Of a DNA stretch of 64,000 bases, positions 2,423 through 62,674 are shown in pieces. Source of the DNA: Bacteroidales bacterium. GTDB lineage: Bacteria > Bacteroidota > Bacteroidia > Bacteroidales > WCHB1-69. Position 1 is the first letter of the stretch. Each line of letters starts with the position of its first letter. Below the pieces are notes generated by a model that saw only the letters and a list, made by a program, of their open reading frames with translations, was not told the DNA's origin and made no database searches. A program made the translations under genes and the position numbers. Location: contig JAFYAW010000018.1 in NCBI GenBank assembly GCA_017540505.1, forward strand, positions 21,286 through 85,285, in the 5' to 3' direction.

Positions 2423-3067
2423 ATGACCGACAATTATCTTTTATTGGGAGCAAAGAAACGGCTGATTGAGGAGCTGCGCGAGAAGGGTATCTCTGATGAG
2501 CAGGTGCTGCAGGCCTTTGACAAGGTGGAACGCCACCGTTTCGTGGAGTCGTTCCTATGGCCGAAAGCCTACCAAAATGTGGCCCTCAAGCTGCTGAACG
2601 GGCAGACTATCTCGCACCCCTATACCGTGGCCTTCCAGTCGCAACTGCTGGGTATTTCAAAGGGCGACAAGGTGTTGGAGATCGGCACGGGCTCCGGATT
2701 CCAAGCGGCCATCCTCAGTGCCATGGGTGCCAAGGTCTTCACGATTGAGCGCCAGGAGCTTCTCTTCCGCAAGACCAGCAAGCTGTTAGAGAGCCTTGAT
2801 GGCCGTATTCTCACCTACTTGGGCGACGGTTACCGCGGCCTGCCGGAGATCGCCCCCTTCCAGAAGATCATCGTCACCTGTGGTGCCCCTGACGTGCCTC
2901 CCGCCTTGCTTGACCAGCTGGCCGTTGGCGGCAGGATGGTGATTCCCGTGGGCGACGCGTCGCACACCATGAAGCGCATCACCCGCGTTGATGATCAATC
3001 GTTTGAGGAAGAGACATTTGGAGACTTTCTGTTCGTCCCCATGCTCAAGGAAGTTGTCCGAAAATAA
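2423..3067 (+). CDS. pcm: Protein-L-isoaspartate O-methyltransferase
   Basis: SAM motif VLEIGTGSGFQAAIL; length 214 aa; overall Pcm-like sequence (ISHPYTVA, VIPVG). Confidence 0.88.
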   Translation: MTDNYLLLGAKKRLIEELREKGISDEQVLQAFDKVERHRFVESFLWPKAYQNVALKLLNGQTISHPYTVAFQSQLLGISKGDKVLEIGTGSGFQAAILSAMGAKVFTIERQELLFRKTSKLLESLDGRILTYLGDGYRGLPEIAPFQKIIVTCGAPDVPPALLDQLAVGGRMVIPVGDASHTMKRITRVDDQSFEEETFGDFLFVPMLKEVVRK

Positions 3068-3072
3068 GCCCG

Positions 3073-4143
3073 CTATTCCTGTTTGAAGACGATGCTCCCC
3101 GGATTCACTCCAACGGGGAACGAGAATTTCTTTTTACCTTGGTCAGAAAAACAATACACATCACCCGTCACGGTGAAGTTGTAGGCATCGGAGATATATA
3201 CGTCGCCGTTGATGGGGTTGACGGTGATGCAGTAGGGAGCATCCAATGAGGTGCCGTCCGTGATGAAATCCTCCGTGGAAAGCTGGTCGTTCAGCAGGTT
3301 CAAGGTGCGAATCCACGAGTCGCCGTTGTTGTAATCGTAGCTGTAGATGTATGCGGTATGCTGATGGATGGCCATTCCTAATACGTTGATATTATAGGTT
3401 TTAATAACGTTGTCGCTGTAGGTGTCTATCTTTTGCAGGTTATATGGGATGCTGCCGTAATTGCCACGGGATTGTACAAACACATAGCGGTCGTTGTAGG
3501 GGATCACTAAGCAGGGGTTGATACCTACCGGGATGGTCTTGATGACGGAGAAGCTGTTGAGGTCGATGACGGTGACGGTGGAGTCGTAGTTCGGATAGTT
3601 TAGTCCGCCGGAGTTGGCCACGTAGAGTTTGTCGTTGCACACGCAGATGCCTTCGGGATTGTTGCCGCTGTGCACGGTGCCGTCCACCGTCAGCGTGGCG
3701 GTGTCGATGCGCACCACGTCGCCGTCAAAGCAGCTGACGTAGGCTTTGCCCTCGTGAAAGGCGATGCTGCGCGGCGATTTGCCCGGCAGGGAGATGGCCT
3801 GGATGGATTTCAGGTCCTTGACGTTCATCACCTCCACACGGTGGGAGTTGTTCACTACGCAATAGAGCTTGGAACCGTAGATTTTGAGGTCGTTGCCCGT
3901 GTCGCCAAGACCGCGTCCGTTGGTTGCCAAGAAGGCGTCATCCGTGATCAGGCCGGTAGCGATGTCGTAGAAGGTGATGGTACTGTTGTTGAGTTGGAAA
4001 TTCCCCTGGTTCAAAACCAAAATACCCGTGGTGATGGGGTTGATAGGCGGTTGGGGCGGATTGCAGGAGGAACAGAGACCGAAGAAGGCTGTGAGGAGTA
4101 GGATTGTCTTTAATAAAAGATGGTGTAGATTGTATTTCATCAT
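3073..4143 (-). CDS. Beta-propeller (YVTN/YncE-like, DUF5074-like) surface lipoprotein
   Basis: Lipoprotein-type signal (LCSSC). Repeated YVxN/GxNP blade-like motifs. Lies immediately downstream of a TonB-dependent receptor. Confidence 0.6.
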   Translation of the reverse strand: MMKYNLHHLLLKTILLLTAFFGLCSSCNPPQPPINPITTGILVLNQGNFQLNNSTITFYDIATGLITDDAFLATNGRGLGDTGNDLKIYGSKLYCVVNNSHRVEVMNVKDLKSIQAISLPGKSPRSIAFHEGKAYVSCFDGDVVRIDTATLTVDGTVHSGNNPEGICVCNDKLYVANSGGLNYPNYDSTVTVIDLNSFSVIKTIPVGINPCLVIPYNDRYVFVQSRGNYGSIPYNLQKIDTYSDNVIKTYNINVLGMAIHQHTAYIYSYDYNNGDSWIRTLNLLNDQLSTEDFITDGTSLDAPYCITVNPINGDVYISDAYNFTVTGDVYCFSDQGKKKFSFPVGVNPGSIVFKQE

Positions 4144-14178: not shown

Positions 14179-14290
14179 ATTGGGATTTGGGTATTGTGGA
14201 ATTAGGCTTTGGCCATTAGCCGTTAGCTATTGGCTTTTAGCTTTTAACTTTTAACTCTAAACTCTAATCTCTCAACTCTAAACTATTAAA
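14179..14290 (+). repeat. Heptanucleotide-phased drifting tandem array (16 units) filling the glnS-downstream spacer
   Basis: ATTGGGA TTTGGGT ATTGTGG AATTAGG CTTTGGC CATTAGC CGTTAGC TATTGGC TTTTAGC TTTTAAC TTTTAAC TCTAAAC TCTAATC TCTCAAC TCTAAAC TATTAAA. Confidence 0.85.
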
Positions 14291-14295
14291 CAGAC

Positions 14296-14715
14296 ATGCA
14301 CTGCCTCACCGATTACGACACCAAGGTGCTGCTCGCCTTCAATCTGAGCTTGCAGGGCGACCGGAAATTCAGTGATTTCCTGATGCAGAACGGGTATCCG
14401 GAGTTGGAGGCGTTGTCGTCGTCCATCCATTCGAACATTGCGGCCCAGCAGTGGCTGTTGGACAATGGGTATCCGGAGTTCGCCGTGTTGAGCAATGCCA
14501 TCGACGACGAGCCGGAGGCTATTGACTGGTTGGAGAAGTACCATTGCGACTTCCTATCCAGGTTTGCGGCGGCGTGCCGGAAGGACCCGGCGGCCATGAA
14601 GTGGTTCGCGGCCAACGACTTGAAACTCTTCGTTATCATCATCAGCAATATCCAGAACATCCTGATGTACCAGTCGTGGGATGCCTCCGACATCCACAAG
14701 TTCCGGCGGAGTTGA
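14296..14715 (+). CDS. Hypothetical protein with internal NGYPE(L/F) repeats
   Basis: 139-aa ORF with a repeated ...(F/W)L(M/L)(Q/D)NGYPE(L/F)... motif. No signal peptide. Family not recognised. Confidence 0.5.
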   Translation: MHCLTDYDTKVLLAFNLSLQGDRKFSDFLMQNGYPELEALSSSIHSNIAAQQWLLDNGYPEFAVLSNAIDDEPEAIDWLEKYHCDFLSRFAAACRKDPAAMKWFAANDLKLFVIIISNIQNILMYQSWDASDIHKFRRS

Positions 14716-24312: not shown

Positions 24313-24344
24313 AAGGCTGACCTGTTATGGGTCAGCCTTTTTTT
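24313..24344 (+). terminator. Intrinsic terminator
   Basis: 10-bp stem AAGGCTGACC/GGTCAGCCTT followed by T7. Confidence 0.8.
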
Positions 24345-24394
24345 CTATATCCGGCGAATACTTAACGACTACACCGGACAAATATACAGAGATT

Positions 24395-24592
24395 ATGTAC
24401 AAGACACCGAACAACTTCAAGCTCGCATTTTTTTATGACACAAAAGACAAAAATCCGTCATGGAAGTTGATAATGCAAATAAAGGATTACACATACAGGT
24501 CTCTCGTTGAGATTGACAAGGATGACATATCAGTGCTTGTTCAAGATTTTGAAAGTGCATACAATAGAATAAAATCAGCCATTGGGGAATAG
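24395..24592 (+). CDS. Small hypothetical protein (65 aa)
   Basis: AT-rich ORF. Its last codons lie in the 5' arm of the 24572-24609 hairpin. No homology recognised. Confidence 0.3.
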   Translation: MYKTPNNFKLAFFYDTKDKNPSWKLIMQIKDYTYRSLVEIDKDDISVLVQDFESAYNRIKSAIGE

Positions 24593-24609
24593 TCCTCAAT
24601 GGCTGATTT
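24572..24609. terminator. 13-bp palindromic hairpin, candidate bidirectional terminator
   Basis: AAATCAGCCATTG / CAATGGCTGATTT with a 12-nt loop. T-rich tails are present on both strands. Confidence 0.6.
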
Positions 24610-24853
24610 GTTTGTTTAACACAAGCGCTCTCGATACTCCTTTTACATTGAAGGTGTACACGTTGCGATTGACATCAATATGGACGCAGTCTTTTCGCTC
24701 TATCCTATTCATTAAGGACAGAACCTCTGTAAGGTCAACTTGTTGGTAGCTGTCAAGCGTCCTCGTGTTGAGCGGCATGACCTTGAAGCCAACAGGCAGG
24801 TCTATGATTAGCATTGGTCGGTCTTTCACGTAATTATTGCCTTCTTCGGTCAC
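24596..24853 (-). CDS. Small hypothetical protein (85 aa)
   Basis: AT-rich ORF convergent with 24395..24592. Its last codons lie in the 3' arm of the same hairpin. Confidence 0.35.
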   Translation of the reverse strand: MTEEGNNYVKDRPMLIIDLPVGFKVMPLNTRTLDSYQQVDLTEVLSLMNRIERKDCVHIDVNRNVYTFNVKGVSRALVLNKQISH

Positions 24854-24918
24854 AAACTACGGACTTCCTCCCTTGCCGACAACAGCGTCACCGCCAGAGT
24901 GGTGGCTCGTTCCTTCCG

Positions 24919-25253
24919 GTTTTAAAACAATCGTATTTATGCACCCTAAAAACTCGAAACGTGCAACCCCATACGGGGTTGTGGGTTCGGCTGGGAATGC
25001 CCTCGGCTACAGATAGGGAACCCCTAGCGGGGTTCAGCGGAATTCGGAAACAAAACAAGATTCCGGCATCAACCGATACACCGCAGACACCCGCATTGGG
25101 CTTAAATGCAATACTGTGCCGGAGGAGGCGGTGGTGAGGTAAAGTGAGGTGAGGTATGACGAGGTAAGGTAAGACGACTGTCTGTAGCAAACGGATGCCA
25201 CACGTGGTTTTCAAATCTCCGTAGGAGATTCATATTCAACGGCTAATGGACGG
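24919..25253 (+). repeat. Copy A of a ~335-bp palindrome-rich repeat element (3' arm partly degenerate)
   Basis: The 123-nt core 24953-25075 differs at only 2 positions from 26220-26342. Hairpins at 24964-24981, 25018-25035 and 25215-25229. CTACAGATAGG box at 25007-25017. Confidence 0.85.
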
Positions 25254-25289
25254 GTCTCCCGTTTAAAACAATTGTATTTTTTGCACCCT

Positions 25290-25351
25290 AAAAACATTGT
25301 AGGAGCATTCTCACAGGAGATCCTGCCTCCTTTCAAATGCTCCTACAATGT
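25290..25351 (-). terminator. Intrinsic terminator downstream of hicB
   Basis: 15-bp stem ACATTGTAGGAGCAT/ATGCTCCTACAATGT (25294-25308 / 25337-25351) followed by T5 on the minus strand. Confidence 0.65.
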
Positions 25352-25388
25352 GCGTCCGAAAACGACACGGCAAAAATACAAAAAACAA

Positions 25389-25793
25389 CTATAAGAGTTG
25401 TACCGCGGCCAGTTCTCTTCCAATCTTGTGAATCGCGGTCTGAATCTTTGACACTTGCTTTTCCGACACATACTGGCCGTGCTTGTATTGGCGCATCAAA
25501 GAGGGGTTGATGCCGGCATATTTTGCAAATTGTGTCATATTCAGTATTTTGTAATAGCTCAAGAAAGAAGGCATATCATATTTATATACGAATGTCGTGT
25601 TTTTCAAATCGTCGGGATCGGGTTTTCCCGTTTCCTCAAACACTTCTATAAATTCCCTAACTGAATTTTCAAAATCGGCTTTAGCCTCGGCGACAGTGCT
25701 GCCGTTTCCAAACATAACGGATTTTGTGTCAGGAGAGAACACACCGAATGTTCCGTCTTTGCCAATTTCTATTAATGCGACTTTCTTTTTCAT
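25389..25793 (-). CDS. hicB: HicB-family antitoxin with C-terminal HTH
   Basis: N-terminus (KVALIEIGKDGTFGVFSPD...GSTVAEAKADFENSVREFIE) is HicB-like. C-terminal XRE-like HTH (MTQFAKYAGINPSLMRQYKHG). An alternative start lies at 25829. Confidence 0.75.
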   Translation of the reverse strand: MKKKVALIEIGKDGTFGVFSPDTKSVMFGNGSTVAEAKADFENSVREFIEVFEETGKPDPDDLKNTTFVYKYDMPSFLSYYKILNMTQFAKYAGINPSLMRQYKHGQYVSEKQVSKIQTAIHKIGRELAAVQLL

Positions 25794-25818
25794 AATTCTA
25801 TGCTTTTGTTGATTTCTA

Positions 25819-26001
25819 TTAAAAACCAATCAATTTCTTCAACTTGCAATACAATCCGTACTTTATTTCCTGCGAACCATGACGTTCAATTTTCAAAAGT
25901 TCATTCTTTTCTGCGTGGGCATATATGTCATGATTAGCACCATTTCGCAAAAGATACCATCCTTTAGATTCGGCTATCCGTCTGAGTTCGCTCCATTTCA
26001 T
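25819..26001 (-). CDS. hicA: HicA-family mRNA interferase toxin
   Basis: MKWSELRRIAESKGWYLLRNGANHDIY...ERHGSQEI fits the HicA/YcfA pattern. The internal start is supported by the -7 box at 26026-26033, which lies inside the longer ORF. Confidence 0.75.
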   Translation of the reverse strand: MKWSELRRIAESKGWYLLRNGANHDIYAHAEKNELLKIERHGSQEIKYGLYCKLKKLIGF

Positions 26002-26025
26002 ACTCCACTGCTTTTGACCATGCTG

Positions 26026-26033
26026 CAAACATA
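26026..26033 (-). promoter_or_regulatory. -7 box TATGTTTG (minus strand) for hicAB
   Basis: Reverse complement of CAAACATA, 25 nt upstream of the hicA ATG at 26001. Confidence 0.45.
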
Positions 26034-26187
26034 TAACTTTTTTGCAATATACCAATACTCTTTAAAAAAATTATTTCTCCCTATCCATCAATTATTTACA
26101 TACTTTCTATAAATATAATTGCTGAAACTGTGCTGCAATATCAAAAGTTTTTTCCAAGACTATTGTATTTATAGAGTTTGCCATTTA

Positions 26188-26530
26188 GTTTTAAAACAAT
26201 CGCATTTACACAATAAAAACTCGAAACGTGCAACCCCATACGGGGTTGTGGGTCCGGCTGGGAATGCCCTCGGCTACAGATAGGGAACCCCTAACGGGGT
26301 TCAGCGGAATTCGGAAACAAAACAAGATTCCGGCATCAACCGCCACGCCGCATACACCCGCATCGGACTGATATGCAATACCGCGCCAGAGGAGGCGGTG
26401 GTGAGGTAAAGTGAGGTGAGACGAGACGTGGTACAACATCCCCGTAGGGGATGCCTATCTGTAGCAAACGTATTCCACACGTGGTTTTCAAATCTCCGTA
26501 GGAGATTCATATTCAACGGTTCATGGACGG
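26188..26530 (+). repeat. Copy B of the ~340-bp palindrome-rich repeat element (most complete copy)
   Basis: Hairpins at 26231-26248, 26285-26302, 26437-26453 and 26492-26506. GCTACAGATAGG (26273-26284) is a perfect complement of CCTATCTGTAGC (26454-26465). Confidence 0.85.
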
Positions 26531-26609
26531 CCTATTCCCACATCAGGAAAACAAAAGACAGCTCGTTGAGAGAACAAGGGTGGAAAGAACCACAAACGAT
26601 AATTTTTCG

Positions 26610-26617
26610 TATTTTTG
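26610..26617 (+). promoter_or_regulatory. -7 box TATTTTTG for trpS
   Basis: TAnnTTTG 23 nt upstream of the ATG at 26640. Confidence 0.6.
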
Positions 26618-26639
26618 CACCCCTAAAAATTATCGTAAA

Positions 26640-27635
26640 ATGGATAAAGTAGCAAGCGGCATACGGCCCACCGGTTTCCTCCATCTCGGCAACTATTTCG
26701 GTGCCTTGAGGAATTTTATCAAAATGCAGAATGAGAACAACTGCTATTTCTTCATCGCGGATTACCATTCCCTGACCACCCATCCCAACCCGACGGACCT
26801 GCGCACCAACGTGCGCAACGTGCTGATCGACTATCTGGCGGCCGGTCTGGATCCGGAGAAGGCCACTATCTATGTGCAGAGCGATGTGCCCGAGGTGTGC
26901 GAGCTGAGCCTGCTGCTCTCCATGAATGTGTATGTGGGTGAGCTGCAGCGCGTGGCATCCTTCAAGGAGAAGGTGCGCCGCCAGCCCAACAACGTCAACG
27001 CCGGCCTGCTCAACTATCCCGTGCTGATGGCTGCCGACATCCTGCTGCACCGCGCCGACAAGGTGCCCGTGGGCAAGGACCAGGAACAGCATCTGGAGAT
27101 GACCCGCGACTTCGCCCAGCGCTTCAACCACATCTACAAACACGAGTATTTCAAACTGCCCGTGGCCTACAACTTCGGCAACGAGTTGGTGAAGATCCCT
27201 GGCCTGGACGGCTCCACTAAGATGTCCAAGTCCGACAATGAGGGCTCCTGCATATACCTCTCCGACGCGCCCGAGGTGGTGCGCAAGAAGATTATGCGTG
27301 CTGTCTCCGACAGCGGCCCGACGGAGCCCGGTCAGCCTAAATCGCAGGCGGTGGAGAACCTCTTCAGCCTGATGAAGGCCGTCTCCACGCCGGATACGGT
27401 GCAATACTTTGAAGACCAGTACCAGGCCTGCCAGATCCGTTACGGGGATATGAAGAAACAGTTGGCCGCGGATATGATTGCGTTCATACAGCCTATATAT
27501 GAGCGCATTATAGAACTGCGTTCCAAAGACGAATACATTAGCAAAGTGGCCCGCATGGGTGCGGAAAAGGCCCGCGAAAGCGCTTCCAAGACCGTGCGCG
27601 AGGTGCGCGAAATCATCGGATTCAAGGCTTTGTAA
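26640..27635 (+). CDS. trpS: Tryptophan--tRNA ligase
   Basis: Start at MDKVASGIRPTGFLHLGNYFGA (HIGH-type). KMSKS motif present (KMSKSD). 331 aa. Confidence 0.92.
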   Translation: MDKVASGIRPTGFLHLGNYFGALRNFIKMQNENNCYFFIADYHSLTTHPNPTDLRTNVRNVLIDYLAAGLDPEKATIYVQSDVPEVCELSLLLSMNVYVGELQRVASFKEKVRRQPNNVNAGLLNYPVLMAADILLHRADKVPVGKDQEQHLEMTRDFAQRFNHIYKHEYFKLPVAYNFGNELVKIPGLDGSTKMSKSDNEGSCIYLSDAPEVVRKKIMRAVSDSGPTEPGQPKSQAVENLFSLMKAVSTPDTVQYFEDQYQACQIRYGDMKKQLAADMIAFIQPIYERIIELRSKDEYISKVARMGAEKARESASKTVREVREIIGFKAL

Positions 27636-53136: not shown

Positions 53137-53318
53137 TTGGCTGTTGGCCGTTAGCTGTTGGCTATTGGGATTTGGGATTTATGTTAATGCCTGAATAAGG
53201 TTGACCGTTGGTCACTATTCACTGATCACTATTCACTGATCACTGATCACTGGTCTTAGTTCCTTAACTCCTCTCAACTCTAATCTCTAAACTCTCAACT
53301 CTAATCTCTCACCTCTTA
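53137..53318 (+). repeat. Heptanucleotide-phased drifting tandem array (about 26 units) filling a convergent intergenic spacer
   Basis: TTGGCTG TTGGCCG TTAGCTG TTGGCTA TTGGGAT TTGGGAT TTATGTT ... GTTGACC GTTGGTC ACTATTC ACTGATC ACTATTC ACTGATC ACTGATC ACTGGTC TTAGTTC CTTAACT CCTCTCA ACTCTAA TCTCTAA ACTCTCA ACTCTAA TCTCTCA CCTCTTA, all in one phase. Confidence 0.85.
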
Positions 53319-54844
53319 ATCGGCAGATAGATGACGAATGTGCTGCCCTTGCCCTCCTCGCTCTGCACCTGGATTTTGCCTTTGTGCAAGGAGACGATTT
53401 TCTTCACATAGCCAAGTCCGAGGCCGTAGCCCTTCACGTTGTGCACGTTGCCTTTGGGCACGCGGTAGAAGTTGTCGAAAATGTTGGCGATGGCCTTCTT
53501 GGGGATGCCGATACCCTTGTCGGTGACCGAGAGCAGGAAATACTTCTCGTCCGACTGCGTGTTGATAAGGATCTCGGGTGCCCCTTGCGAGTATTTGATG
53601 CCGTTTTCCACCAAATTGACAATCACATTGGCCAAATGGGAGCGGTCGCCGAAGATCTTGTAGGTGTCGGCGTTCAGGGCCAAGGAGAGCGTCCCGTTGG
53701 TGGATGAGATCTGCAGGGCGATGTTGTCCGAAACCTTGTGGATGAGCTCGTGCATGTCCAAAAGCTCGATGTTCATCTTCACCTGTCCTTTTTTCAGTTG
53801 AGCAATCTGTAAGATGTTGTTGACCATGTTTTTGAGACGGTCGTTTTCGTCACGGATGATGGAGACATAGCTCTCTAAGATGTCGGCGTCGTTGCGCATG
53901 ACGGGGTCGGTGAGTGCCTCGCAGGCTAACGAGATGGTGGAGATCGGGGTTTTGAACTCGTGGGTCATGTTATTGACGAACTCGTTGGTGACCTCCGACA
54001 GTTTTTTCTGGCGGTACAGGGAGAACAGGGCGGTGAAGGAGATGGTGAAGCAGATGATCAGGAAGATGAGGATGAGGCCCACGATGGTGCTCATACGCTG
54101 GAGGAAGATGCCGCGTTCGGCGGGGAAGTGGAGGATGATGTAGTGCGGCGCGCTCACTTTCTCGTTGAATTTCAGACGGAAGACGTAGTCGCTCTTGAGC
54201 ATCTGCTCGGGCTGGGTGAATTCCGGCTCAACGACGAAGTCGGTGGTGAAGGCGTTGTAAAGGGCGAAGTCGAAGCGTGCGGTGATGTTCTCGGCGGCCA
54301 AGGCATTCTCGATGACCTCGTGAAGGAATTCGGCGTTCAGCAGGGCCACGGTCTGGCTGTCGAGCTGGATGAGGTTGGCATCGCGGGTGTTGTTGATCAG
54401 CAGGGTAGTAGATTTGGTGTTCTTGGGTGACCACGGATCGTTGTTGACGGGGAAGAGCTGCCGGTAGGACTCGCTGAAATACTCGGTGTCGCACTCCATA
54501 AGCCGGGAGTTGTTCTCCTTGACGAAGATGACCGCCTTGATGACGCCGATGGGCTGTTGCGTTACGGTGTCGAGCAGGAATTTGCGGGTGTGCATGGTGG
54601 AGACCACATCCGTGGTGTCGGCGGCGGTGAGCTTCCCTACGGCTTCCGCCATGGCCACTGTGTCGTTGAGGATGGTGGCGTCAATCTGGTTGACGATGGC
54701 ATCGCCGGCCGTCAGCACCTCGTTGACGAAAATGCTCCGCTGCACCTTCTCCGCTTCCGTGTAAAGCTTGAAAATGGACAGGATCAGCGGGATGGAGGTG
54801 ATGCCGACAATGAAGAACAAGGCTACGATGATACGTTTTTTCAT
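53309..54844 (-). CDS. Sensor histidine kinase
   Basis: Two TM segments; H-box (NMTHEFKTPISTI); N, G1 and G2 boxes (NLVENGIKY, DKGIGIP, GYGLGL). Confidence 0.88.
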   Translation of the reverse strand: MKKRIIVALFFIVGITSIPLILSIFKLYTEAEKVQRSIFVNEVLTAGDAIVNQIDATILNDTVAMAEAVGKLTAADTTDVVSTMHTRKFLLDTVTQQPIGVIKAVIFVKENNSRLMECDTEYFSESYRQLFPVNNDPWSPKNTKSTTLLINNTRDANLIQLDSQTVALLNAEFLHEVIENALAAENITARFDFALYNAFTTDFVVEPEFTQPEQMLKSDYVFRLKFNEKVSAPHYIILHFPAERGIFLQRMSTIVGLILIFLIICFTISFTALFSLYRQKKLSEVTNEFVNNMTHEFKTPISTISLACEALTDPVMRNDADILESYVSIIRDENDRLKNMVNNILQIAQLKKGQVKMNIELLDMHELIHKVSDNIALQISSTNGTLSLALNADTYKIFGDRSHLANVIVNLVENGIKYSQGAPEILINTQSDEKYFLLSVTDKGIGIPKKAIANIFDNFYRVPKGNVHNVKGYGLGLGYVKKIVSLHKGKIQVQSEEGKGSTFVIYLPIKR

Positions 54845-62380: not shown

Positions 62381-62454
62381 GGTCCCTTAGCGCAGTTGGT
62401 TAGAGCAACTGACTCATAATCAGTAGGTCCTTGGTTCGAGCCCAAGAGGGACCA
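62381..62454 (+). tRNA. tRNA with CAT anticodon (Met elongator, or Ile2 if lysidinylated)
   Basis: Acceptor GGTCCCT/AGGGACC. D-arm GCGC-AGTTGGTTA-GAGC. Anticodon stem ACTGA/TCAGT with loop CTCATAA. T-arm CTTGG-TTCGAGC-CCAAG. Discriminator A. Confidence 0.9.
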
Positions 62455-62638: not shown

Positions 62639-62674
62639 AAACGCCGTAGGCGTTTCATATCTGTAGAAATAGGG
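62639..62674 (+). repeat. Solitary copy of the element's 3'-arm module (GTA-loop hairpin + CATATCTGTAG box)
   Basis: AAACGCC-GTA-GGCGTTT followed by CATATCTGTAGAAATAGGG. Compare CATCCCC-GTA-GGGGATG + CCTATCTGTAG at 26437-26464. Confidence 0.7.

Follow-up and report, generated by a model that had tools for sequence, protein, structure and literature searches.

We analyzed a 64,000-nucleotide (nt) stretch of a Bacteroidales bacterium genome (GenBank assembly GCA_017540505.1, contig JAFYAW010000018.1), which is referred to here as the window. Upstream of the tryptophanyl-tRNA synthetase gene (trpS), which begins at position 26640, two copies of a ~340-bp repeat bracketed a hicB/hicA toxin-antitoxin (TA) cassette located on the minus strand at 25389-26055. 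Copy B was on the trpS side of the cassette, and copy A was located at 24919-25294, 1267-1277 bp upstream. Our results suggested that the repeat is probably a composite DNA element similar to repetitive extragenic palindromes (REPs) and bacterial interspersed mosaic elements (BIMEs), that a cognate enzyme, an IS200-like Y1 protein of the HUH (histidine-hydrophobic-histidine) type, probably uses its modules as substrates, and that the copies flanking hicBA in the window are nonautonomous. A preliminary description of this DNA had listed the repeat as a candidate structured RNA. The findings presented here strike it off that list and place it with the HUH Y1-associated repeats.

Module structure of the repeat

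The basic module was a 5- to 8-bp hairpin followed by the tag (C)(C/A)T(A/G)TCTGTAG. The sequence of the stem was variable and its pairing was kept. Specifically, the DNA that was collected (299 kb) contained 147 TCTGTAG sites, 134 of which were located 2 to 8 nt downstream of a perfect hairpin, and the hairpin-plus-tag modules in this DNA had at least 20 distinct stem sequences. The pattern YMTRTCTGTAG occurred four times in the window, and 0.08 occurrences were expected.

Copy B contained four hairpins (hp1 to hp4), the coordinates of which are listed in Table 1. Two of the hairpins, hp2 and hp3, were tagged modules that faced each other in inverted orientation; hp1 and hp4 were untagged and were found at the outer ends. 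A 12-nt box abutted hp2 and another abutted hp3, and these boxes (GCTACAGATAGG and CCTATCTGTAGC) formed a perfect inverted pair. The window contained three exact occurrences of the 12-mer box, or four when one mismatch was allowed (0.08 expected from shuffled sequences).

The preliminary description had placed the hairpins and boxes at 26231-26506, and every element was present there. It had also described a palindrome with four hairpins, which was accurate for copy B and inaccurate for copy A, as copy A lacked hp3 entirely. Similarly, its statement that the cores of the two copies had only two differences was true of the 5' half; elsewhere many positions differed, and the copies were ~87-91% identical overall, with many of the differences located centrally. 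The box variant that had been noted in copy A (CTGTCTGTAGC) was present.

Hairpin covariation was examined in an alignment of 12 units centered on the slot, which is the interval between hp4 (or the tail that follows it) and hp1, and 500 shuffles were used for comparison. In this alignment, 92% of the cells were paired and seven pairs had changed on both sides, and none of the 500 shuffles attained the observed values. When the partner column was slid, pairing fell to 34-50%. In the case of individual hairpins, CG<->UA changes were observed in hp4 and CG<->GC changes in hp2. The 12-nt box pairing showed one A-U/G-C switch, and two positions each had a mismatch in 4-5 of the 12 sequences. This mismatch pattern is the one that inverted binding sites of a single protein would show, and a helix between the boxes would be unnecessary.

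In addition to the array upstream of trpS, the window contained one lone module located ~36 kb away. This module (62639-62667) had a different stem and the common grammar, and a tRNA gene (62381-62454) with its terminator preceded it by ~190 nt. A minor observation concerned the purine tract in copy B (26385-26430), which, like the equivalent tract in a related locus (L008; the letter L and a number denote related loci and contigs), was a hexamer repeated a variable number of times, (GGTGAG/GGTAAG/GACGAG)n. The length of the tract was unequal between copies.

Y1 transposase genes are associated with the modules

In the related loci L026 (694-1155, minus strand) and L020 (3788-4246, plus strand), a Y1_Tnp gene occupied the slot between hp4 and hp1. 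The predicted product was 153 amino acids (aa) in length, matched PF01797 (E = 4e-22), and carried the motifs DHIH, WQ, and YIENQVQHH. It passed the NCBIfam model for IS200/IS605 transposases (NF033573; 57.7 bits, cutoff 55), and the closest solved structures were the IS200/IS605 TnpA proteins of ISDra2 and IS608. The arms of the slot were ~75-bp inverted repeats, in each of which a GGAAT spacer and then the box separated an inner hairpin from an outer one. The slot was filled by the Y1 gene in some relatives, by a linker of only ~30 nt in others, and by hicBA in the window.

The preliminary description had considered ends of the IS200/IS605 type and their nonautonomous derivatives, the palindrome-associated transposable elements (PATEs), and it had suggested a search for Y1 genes flanked by matching hairpins and the CTACAGATA(G/T)G box. 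Such genes were found in related Bacteroidales contigs, which supported this reading. Two details departed from it: the flanking modules were inverted, as in a REPtron or BIME (see below), and not direct as at IS200 ends, and the order of parts in the conserved core of the family was permuted.

An independent test of the association was made by fetching Y1 homologues by protein identity alone and then inspecting their flanks. Hairpin-plus-tag modules were located within 900 bp of the Y1 gene in all of the lineages that were 78, 75, 69, and 65% identical. In the 78, 69, and 65% lineages, hairpins with C(C/A)T(A/G)TCTGTAG were found on both sides of the gene. In the 75% lineage, the same hairpins were found and the tag had diverged to CTATAGAGATG or CATCCGTGTAG. 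At the Y1 loci with 62-63% identity, an hp4-type hairpin (AATCCCC-N3-GGGGATT) still flanked the gene and one tagged module was detected at one locus. Hence, five of the seven lineages examined had tagged modules (L026/L020 and the four lineages at 65-78%), one had a single module, and one had untagged hairpins only.

Inverted modules flanked the Y1 gene in L026, L020, L029, L032, L036, and L037/38, and the loops of the flanking modules were mutually reverse-complementary (e.g., GTCA versus TAAC in L036). Near Y1 genes, we also found tandem arrays with a period of ~54 nt that consisted of a hairpin, CATATCTGTAGAA, and a spacer; as many as 15 modules were present in 3.5 kb.

By analogy with IS608, ISDra2, and TnpA_REP (PMC6006769, PMC8266576), the hairpins would be extruded in single-stranded DNA, and the Y1 enzyme would bind the foot of the hairpin and read the neighboring tag. 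Cutting and rejoining by the enzyme could then excise, duplicate, or insert modules, some of which may be mobile at present. Growth of the arrays may involve tandem duplication and recombination between units, and an effect on hicBA or trpS at the RNA level, if any, would be secondary.

A palindrome, TTAACAA-N4-6-TTGTTAA, was conserved in Y1 promoter regions (L026 ~1225-1245, L036 1899-1926, L037 1415-1434, and L032 ~1905-1930) and could be an operator. The repeat that bounds the units in the window (TTAAAACAATCG; see below) resembled half of this palindrome.

Distribution and unit order of related elements

When one genome per GTDB species was scanned for the exact pattern of the 5' box and hp2, only two Bacteroidales metagenome-assembled genomes (MAGs) with three sites were detected. 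A metagenome scan with a 3' pattern yielded 18 loci from rumen-type samples. No match was found by BLASTN against plasmids and phages or in two exact-pattern scans of viral contigs.

Profile mapping showed that the usual order in relatives was central block, hp3, box, hp4, tail, ~30-nt linker, hp1, box, and hp2. Relative to most relatives, the unit as it had been delimited in the preliminary description is therefore permuted. The most conserved stretch ran from hp3 to hp1, and in the window this stretch was split by the hicBA cassette. A circularly permuted RNA in UBA1176 (L010) was considered and rejected, as the usual unit order of the family together with tandem arrangement provided a better explanation.

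The central block was also considered as a coding remnant, given a conserved translation (…NRHASDTRIGLMDSTVP…) that was fused to an upstream open reading frame (ORF) in L026. This candidate was rejected: the variability was equal at the three codon positions (0.50/0.48/0.44), and the absence of codon periodicity indicated that the block is noncoding. The ORF in question (L026 11-322) ran into the central block and stopped inside hp3 (…AYTGVNRHASDTRVGLMDSTVPIEAMVSGVPHPC*), so a host gene at that locus takes its C terminus and its stop codon from the element. Two further candidates were rejected as well. Differences between the copies were not adenine specific upon inspection, which did not fit the template/variable repeat pair of a diversity-generating retroelement, and a T-box or other trpS leader was dismissed because a strain with an empty site keeps the trpS promoter without the element and because the element is also found upstream of maf.

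A truncated copy in L008 (5700-5670, minus strand) opened with a hybrid hairpin in which CAACCCC, the 5' arm of hp1, was joined to TAAC-GGGGTTC, the loop and 3' arm of hp2. The intervening box and spacer were deleted, as expected from breakage and rejoining or from slippage between two hairpins.

Strain variation, boundary repeats, and cargo

The trpS locus was compared among contigs whose encoded TrpS protein is identical. One related strain (L007) had flanks that were 92-95% identical and lacked 24344-26603, a region that includes both repeat copies, hicBA, and two small ORFs. Contigs from the same species carried two to three repeat copies (three in L004), and several had a 444-bp deletion with an end point within copy A. 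The presence/absence polymorphism of the array among strains indicated that it is accessory DNA. In L004 (1-2325), the third element copy was accompanied by an intact ORF of 200 aa, of which only 65 aa are left in the window, and by a truncated type 2 hicB gene upstream of the 182-aa gene. This arrangement reflects a rearrangement or an assembly chimera.

A direct repeat of ~32 bp, GTTTTAAAACAATYGYATTT and then …CACCC.TAAAAA, bordered every unit and cassette. The 3' part of this boundary repeat (24919-24952 and 25261-25294) had an almost identical counterpart in the trpS promoter region (CGTATTTTTGCACCCCTAAAAA; 26603-26629), which was present even in the strain without the element (L007 3965-3998). 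The boundary repeat may have arisen as a duplicated promoter or may serve as an attachment-like target. A parallel layout was found at a second locus, upstream of maf in the MAG Tb.RUG.328, where a truncated repeat, a type 2 hicAB pair, and a full repeat were arranged in that order.

Almost all genes between or beside the repeats were TA or abortive-infection (Abi) genes. Across the loci, the cargo included HicAB of two types, DUF4160/DUF2442, DUF6577 with AbiEii, DUF5618, a 23S_rRNA_IVP protein with a zinc ribbon, and an AbiF-type gene with the abiF RNA motif. The position of the cassette relative to the modules differed from species to species. In L011 (1517-1553), the abiF RNA motif (RF03085, 56 bits) was located beside the element and upstream of the AbiF-type gene, and a cobalamin riboswitch was found downstream of the L026 array (2899-3088).

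Alternative explanations for the repeat

A plus-strand structured noncoding RNA of ~300 nt, in which the 12-bp long-range helix closes a multihairpin junction and the boundary repeat supplies the promoter, would account for the stable fold predicted for copy B (-122.1 kcal/mol, z = -4.3), for the covariation of the hairpins, and for the resemblance of the boundary repeat to the Bacteroidetes -7 element TAnnTTTG. However, the minus strand was predicted to be almost equally stable (-117.6 kcal/mol, z = -3.6), and the fold of copy A, which is without hp3, had a z score of only -2.2. The G-U pair in copy A had been put forward as a hint of constraint on plus-strand RNA, and this hint was gone at the level of the family, where G.T and A.C mismatches occurred in similar numbers (6:4 for the hairpins and 4:5 for the paired boxes). 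The proposed helix was mismatched in some members, as described above, the parts were permuted and the units truncated in most relatives, and the genomic context varied (trpS, maf, and others). The preliminary description had recognized no known RNA family. An Rfam 15 search gave only chance-level matches in the element, both at gathering thresholds (64-kb window and eight related loci) and at E <= 10 (24700-26750). Within the unit, a scan for sigma-70 promoters and terminators did not exceed the background set by shuffled sequences and predicted no intrinsic terminator on the plus strand. Given the absence of an Rfam match, the near-equal folding of both strands, and the balanced mismatches, the RNA reading was not supported, and we consider it very unlikely.

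The boundary repeats and the cargo raised the idea of an integron-like platform, with the ~340-bp repeat or the ~32-bp boundary repeat serving as a recombination site at which TA/Abi cassettes are inserted beside housekeeping promoters. The nature of the cargo across loci fits this idea, as does the finding that a type 1 hicBA and a type 2 hicAB were present at one point of the unit, both bounded by GTTTTAAAACAATYGYATTT; moreover, the empty-site strain L007 already has a nearly identical sequence in its trpS promoter. Integron attC arrays offer a functional analogy only: they also consist of structured imperfect palindromes between small promoter-poor cassettes, which often carry TA genes, and they are also strain variable. 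Nevertheless, no integrase or recombinase was called within +/-4 kb in seven same-species contigs (no search for an integrase covered the whole window), and the repeat had neither an IntI gene nor R/L core sites. The paired R''/R' sites of attC were absent as well; upon sequence inspection, ATTCAAC fit RYYYAAC and the GTTRRRY partner was absent. With ~340 bp, the unit is 3-5 times longer than attC (57-141 bp), and other species place their cassettes at differing points relative to the modules. The sole enzyme repeatedly associated with the repeat was the Y1 HUH transposase, which is not a tyrosine recombinase. An integron-like platform therefore seemed unlikely. The repeat could instead be an inert relic, in which case unequal crossing-over at the trpS promoter would have duplicated the decayed ends of a former IS200-like element that now have no activity or function. 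The absence of a Y1 gene from the window, the loss of hp3 from copy A, the copies that are truncated or hybrid (e.g., the hp1/hp2 hairpin of L008), the deletion variants among strains, and the copying of trpS promoter sequence in the boundary repeat are all consistent with decay. On the other hand, the hairpins and tag were near perfect across species and had compensatory changes, which argues that the family is under continuing selection or was recently active, and the architecture recurred at the second locus upstream of maf. A relic without present function was judged quite improbable.

Comparison with known REP and IS200 systems

If the repeat is a REP/BIME-like substrate of a Y1 enzyme, its closest counterparts are the REP/BIME/REPIN-RAYT systems (REPIN, REP doublet forming hairpin; RAYT, REP-associated tyrosine transposase), or REPtrons, of Escherichia coli, Pseudomonas, and Stenotrophomonas (PMC3733652, PMC6006769, PMC8266576). 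Both have short hairpins and a GTAG-containing tag. In both, the stems covary, subfamilies exist, and inverted dimers and clusters with alternating spacers are formed. Both are intergenic, and a Y1 HUH gene is located between inverted copies, which for the repeat described here is the case in relatives and not in the window. The enzyme, however, is of class 1 (IS200-like, Y---Q--HH) and not a class 2 RAYT (Y---NP). In contrast to REPs, each unit here is a composite of ~340 bp, with two untagged hairpins and a conserved central block of ~60 nt among its parts, and the arrays are interleaved with TA/Abi cassettes.

The likeness to IS200/IS605 elements included the match of the protein to the transposase model and the occurrence of versions without the gene. 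In L026, the unit formed by the gene and its hairpins from hp4 to hp1 was ~660 bp, which is near the size of IS200. In contrast to IS200/IS605, a tnpB gene was absent, the conservation of the flanks reached far past a 4-5-nt target, and the elements were arrayed instead of being dispersed as identical copies. The element thus departs from REPtrons in its protein and from IS200 ends in the orientation of its modules, and it fits neither known family cleanly.

The motifs of the Y1 protein match those of TnpA_Y1 subclass 1.2 (DH[IV]H, WQ, and Y---Q--HH) as described by Quentin et al. (2018; PMC6006769), and on the basis of its motifs only the enzyme is a putative member of this subclass. The mean length of subclass 1.2 proteins is 148 aa compared to 153 aa here, and both are found in Bacteroidetes at low copy number (PMC6006769).

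Several observations weigh against a REP-like repeat served by a Y1 enzyme. Subclass 1.2 has been described as lacking both IS ends and REPs (PMC6006769), in contrast to the tagged hairpin modules that we found in five of seven lineages. The Y1 protein scored well below the cutoff of the RAYT model NF047646 (21.8 bits, cutoff 80). The tag is 11 nt long and is located 4-5 nt from the foot of the hairpin, so that GTAG lies 7-8 nt from the stem and is not adjacent to it as a REP-type tag, and the copy number looks low compared to that of classical REPs in the exact-pattern scan. No Y1 gene was present in the 64-kb window, so the window copies are nonautonomous or relics. In addition, the ~32-bp direct repeats around the cassettes are no known signature of Y1 transposition, and the only empty site, in L007, differed by a 48-bp substitution and showed no clean insertion footprint. 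With these points taken into account, the REP/BIME-like reading was still the one that we considered probable.

REP/RAYT and IS200/PATE systems are well known, and the element is not categorically new. In the literature that we searched, three features appear to be undescribed: the association of hairpin repeats that bear a GTAG tag with a class 1, subclass 1.2-like Y1 enzyme, the occurrence of repeats of this kind in Bacteroidales, and their organization as composite units of ~340 bp interleaved with TA/Abi cassettes. Di Nocera et al. reported no GTAG-type REPs from Bacteroidetes, and we found nothing specific in the literature on REPtrons or TnpAREP in Bacteroides or Prevotella. The present findings extend GTAG-tagged palindromic repeats to Bacteroidetes and make the hairpin with CATATCTGTAG a concrete candidate DNA substrate for a Y1 subclass with previously unknown targets. 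The recurrent HicAB, AbiE, AbiF-type, and DUF4160/DUF2442 cassettes suggest that, in the Bacteroidales of the rumen and gut, the arrays mark or help to build small islands of defense and addiction genes. A broader proposal, which we regard as rather unlikely, is that subclass 1.2 Y1 enzymes have cognate GTAG-tagged repeats in Bacteroidales and that the arrays are an HUH-driven platform that captures and shuffles TA/Abi cassettes near housekeeping promoters. If this were true, they would correspond, at the level of single-stranded DNA, to the attC arrays of integrons.

Features of the locus and other repeats in the window

The coordinates of the array, its modules, and the neighboring genes are given in Table 1.

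Table 1. Features of the repeat array in the window and of tandem module arrays in related loci (a dot indicates that no strand is assigned)
Feature	Coordinates	Strand	Remarks
Whole accessory array, 2.26 kb	24344..26603	.	Missing from related strain L007
Copy A, 5'-side boundary direct repeat	24919..24952	+	GTTTTAAAACAATCGTATTTATGCACCCTAAAAA
Copy A, hairpin 1	24964..24981	.	CAACCCC-ATAC-GGGGTTG
Copy A, module: box GCTACAGATAGG and hairpin 2	25006..25035	+	GAACCCC-TAGC-GGGGTTC
Copy A, inverted box	25177..25188	+	ACTGTCTGTAGC; hairpin 3 missing here
Copy A, hairpin 4 and conserved tail GATTCATATTCAACGG	25214..25242	+	AATCTCC-GTA-GGAGATT
Copy A, 3'-side boundary direct repeat	25261..25294	+	Left edge of cassette slot
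Long near-perfect hairpin just past hicB stop codon	25296..25353	.	Probably a terminator, bidirectional
Presumed hicB antitoxin gene	25389..25829	-	No Pfam/NCBIfam match of its own; called from overlap position with hicA
hicA toxin gene	25819..26055	-	PF07927; cargo in slot
Copy B, 5'-side boundary direct repeat	26188..26219	+	GTTTTAAAACAATCGCATTTACACAATAAAAA; right edge of slot
Copy B, hairpin 1 (hp1)	26231-26248	.	CAACCCC-ATAC-GGGGTTG; invariant family-wide
Copy B, 5' box region	26261-26284		GGAATGCCCTCGGCTACAGATAGG; directly 5' of hp2
Copy B, module: box GCTACAGATAGG and hp2	26273..26302	+	Box at 26273-26284
Copy B, hairpin 2 (hp2)	26285-26302		GAACCCC-TAAC-GGGGTTC
Copy B, 6-bp stem CGGAAT/ATTCCG	26305..26332	.	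A-rich loop of variable length
Copy B, central block, conserved, noncoding	26334..26430	.	Contains …AACCGCCACGCC…ACACCCGCATCGG.CTGA…, then variable (GGTGAG)n purine tract
Copy B, hairpin 3 (hp3)	26437-26453		CATCCCC-GTA-GGGGATG
Copy B, module: hp3 and box CCTATCTGTAGC	26437..26465	+	Box at 26454-26465; inverted versus 26273-26302
Copy B, 3' box region	26454-26476		CCTATCTGTAGCAAACGTATTCC; directly 3' of hp3
Copy B, hp4 and conserved tail GATTCATATTCAACGG	26491..26519	+	AATCTCC-GTA-GGAGATT
Copy B, hairpin 4 (hp4)	26492-26506		ATCTCC-GTA-GGAGAT
trpS promoter region	26603..26629	+	TTTTTCGTATTTTTGCACCCCTAAAAA; also in empty-site strain L007
Lone module, ~36 kb away	62639..62667	+	Hairpin AAACGCC-GTA-GGCGTTT directly followed by CATATCTGTAGA
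Tandem module arrays	L036 2695-2930; L037 727-1066, 1220-1398; L038 2375-2713		

The long hairpin downstream of hicB (25296-25353) gave a spurious match to the Rfam family AEV_CRE (31 bits compared to a gathering score of 100). Other repeats were found elsewhere in the window. Two 62-nt direct repeats that were 95% identical and 113 nt apart were located at 260-434, just downstream of a tRNA gene (126-212). Short tandem repeats of the CTCTAAA/CTCTCAA type with a 7- or 14-nt period were located at 14220-14296 and 53257-53319.

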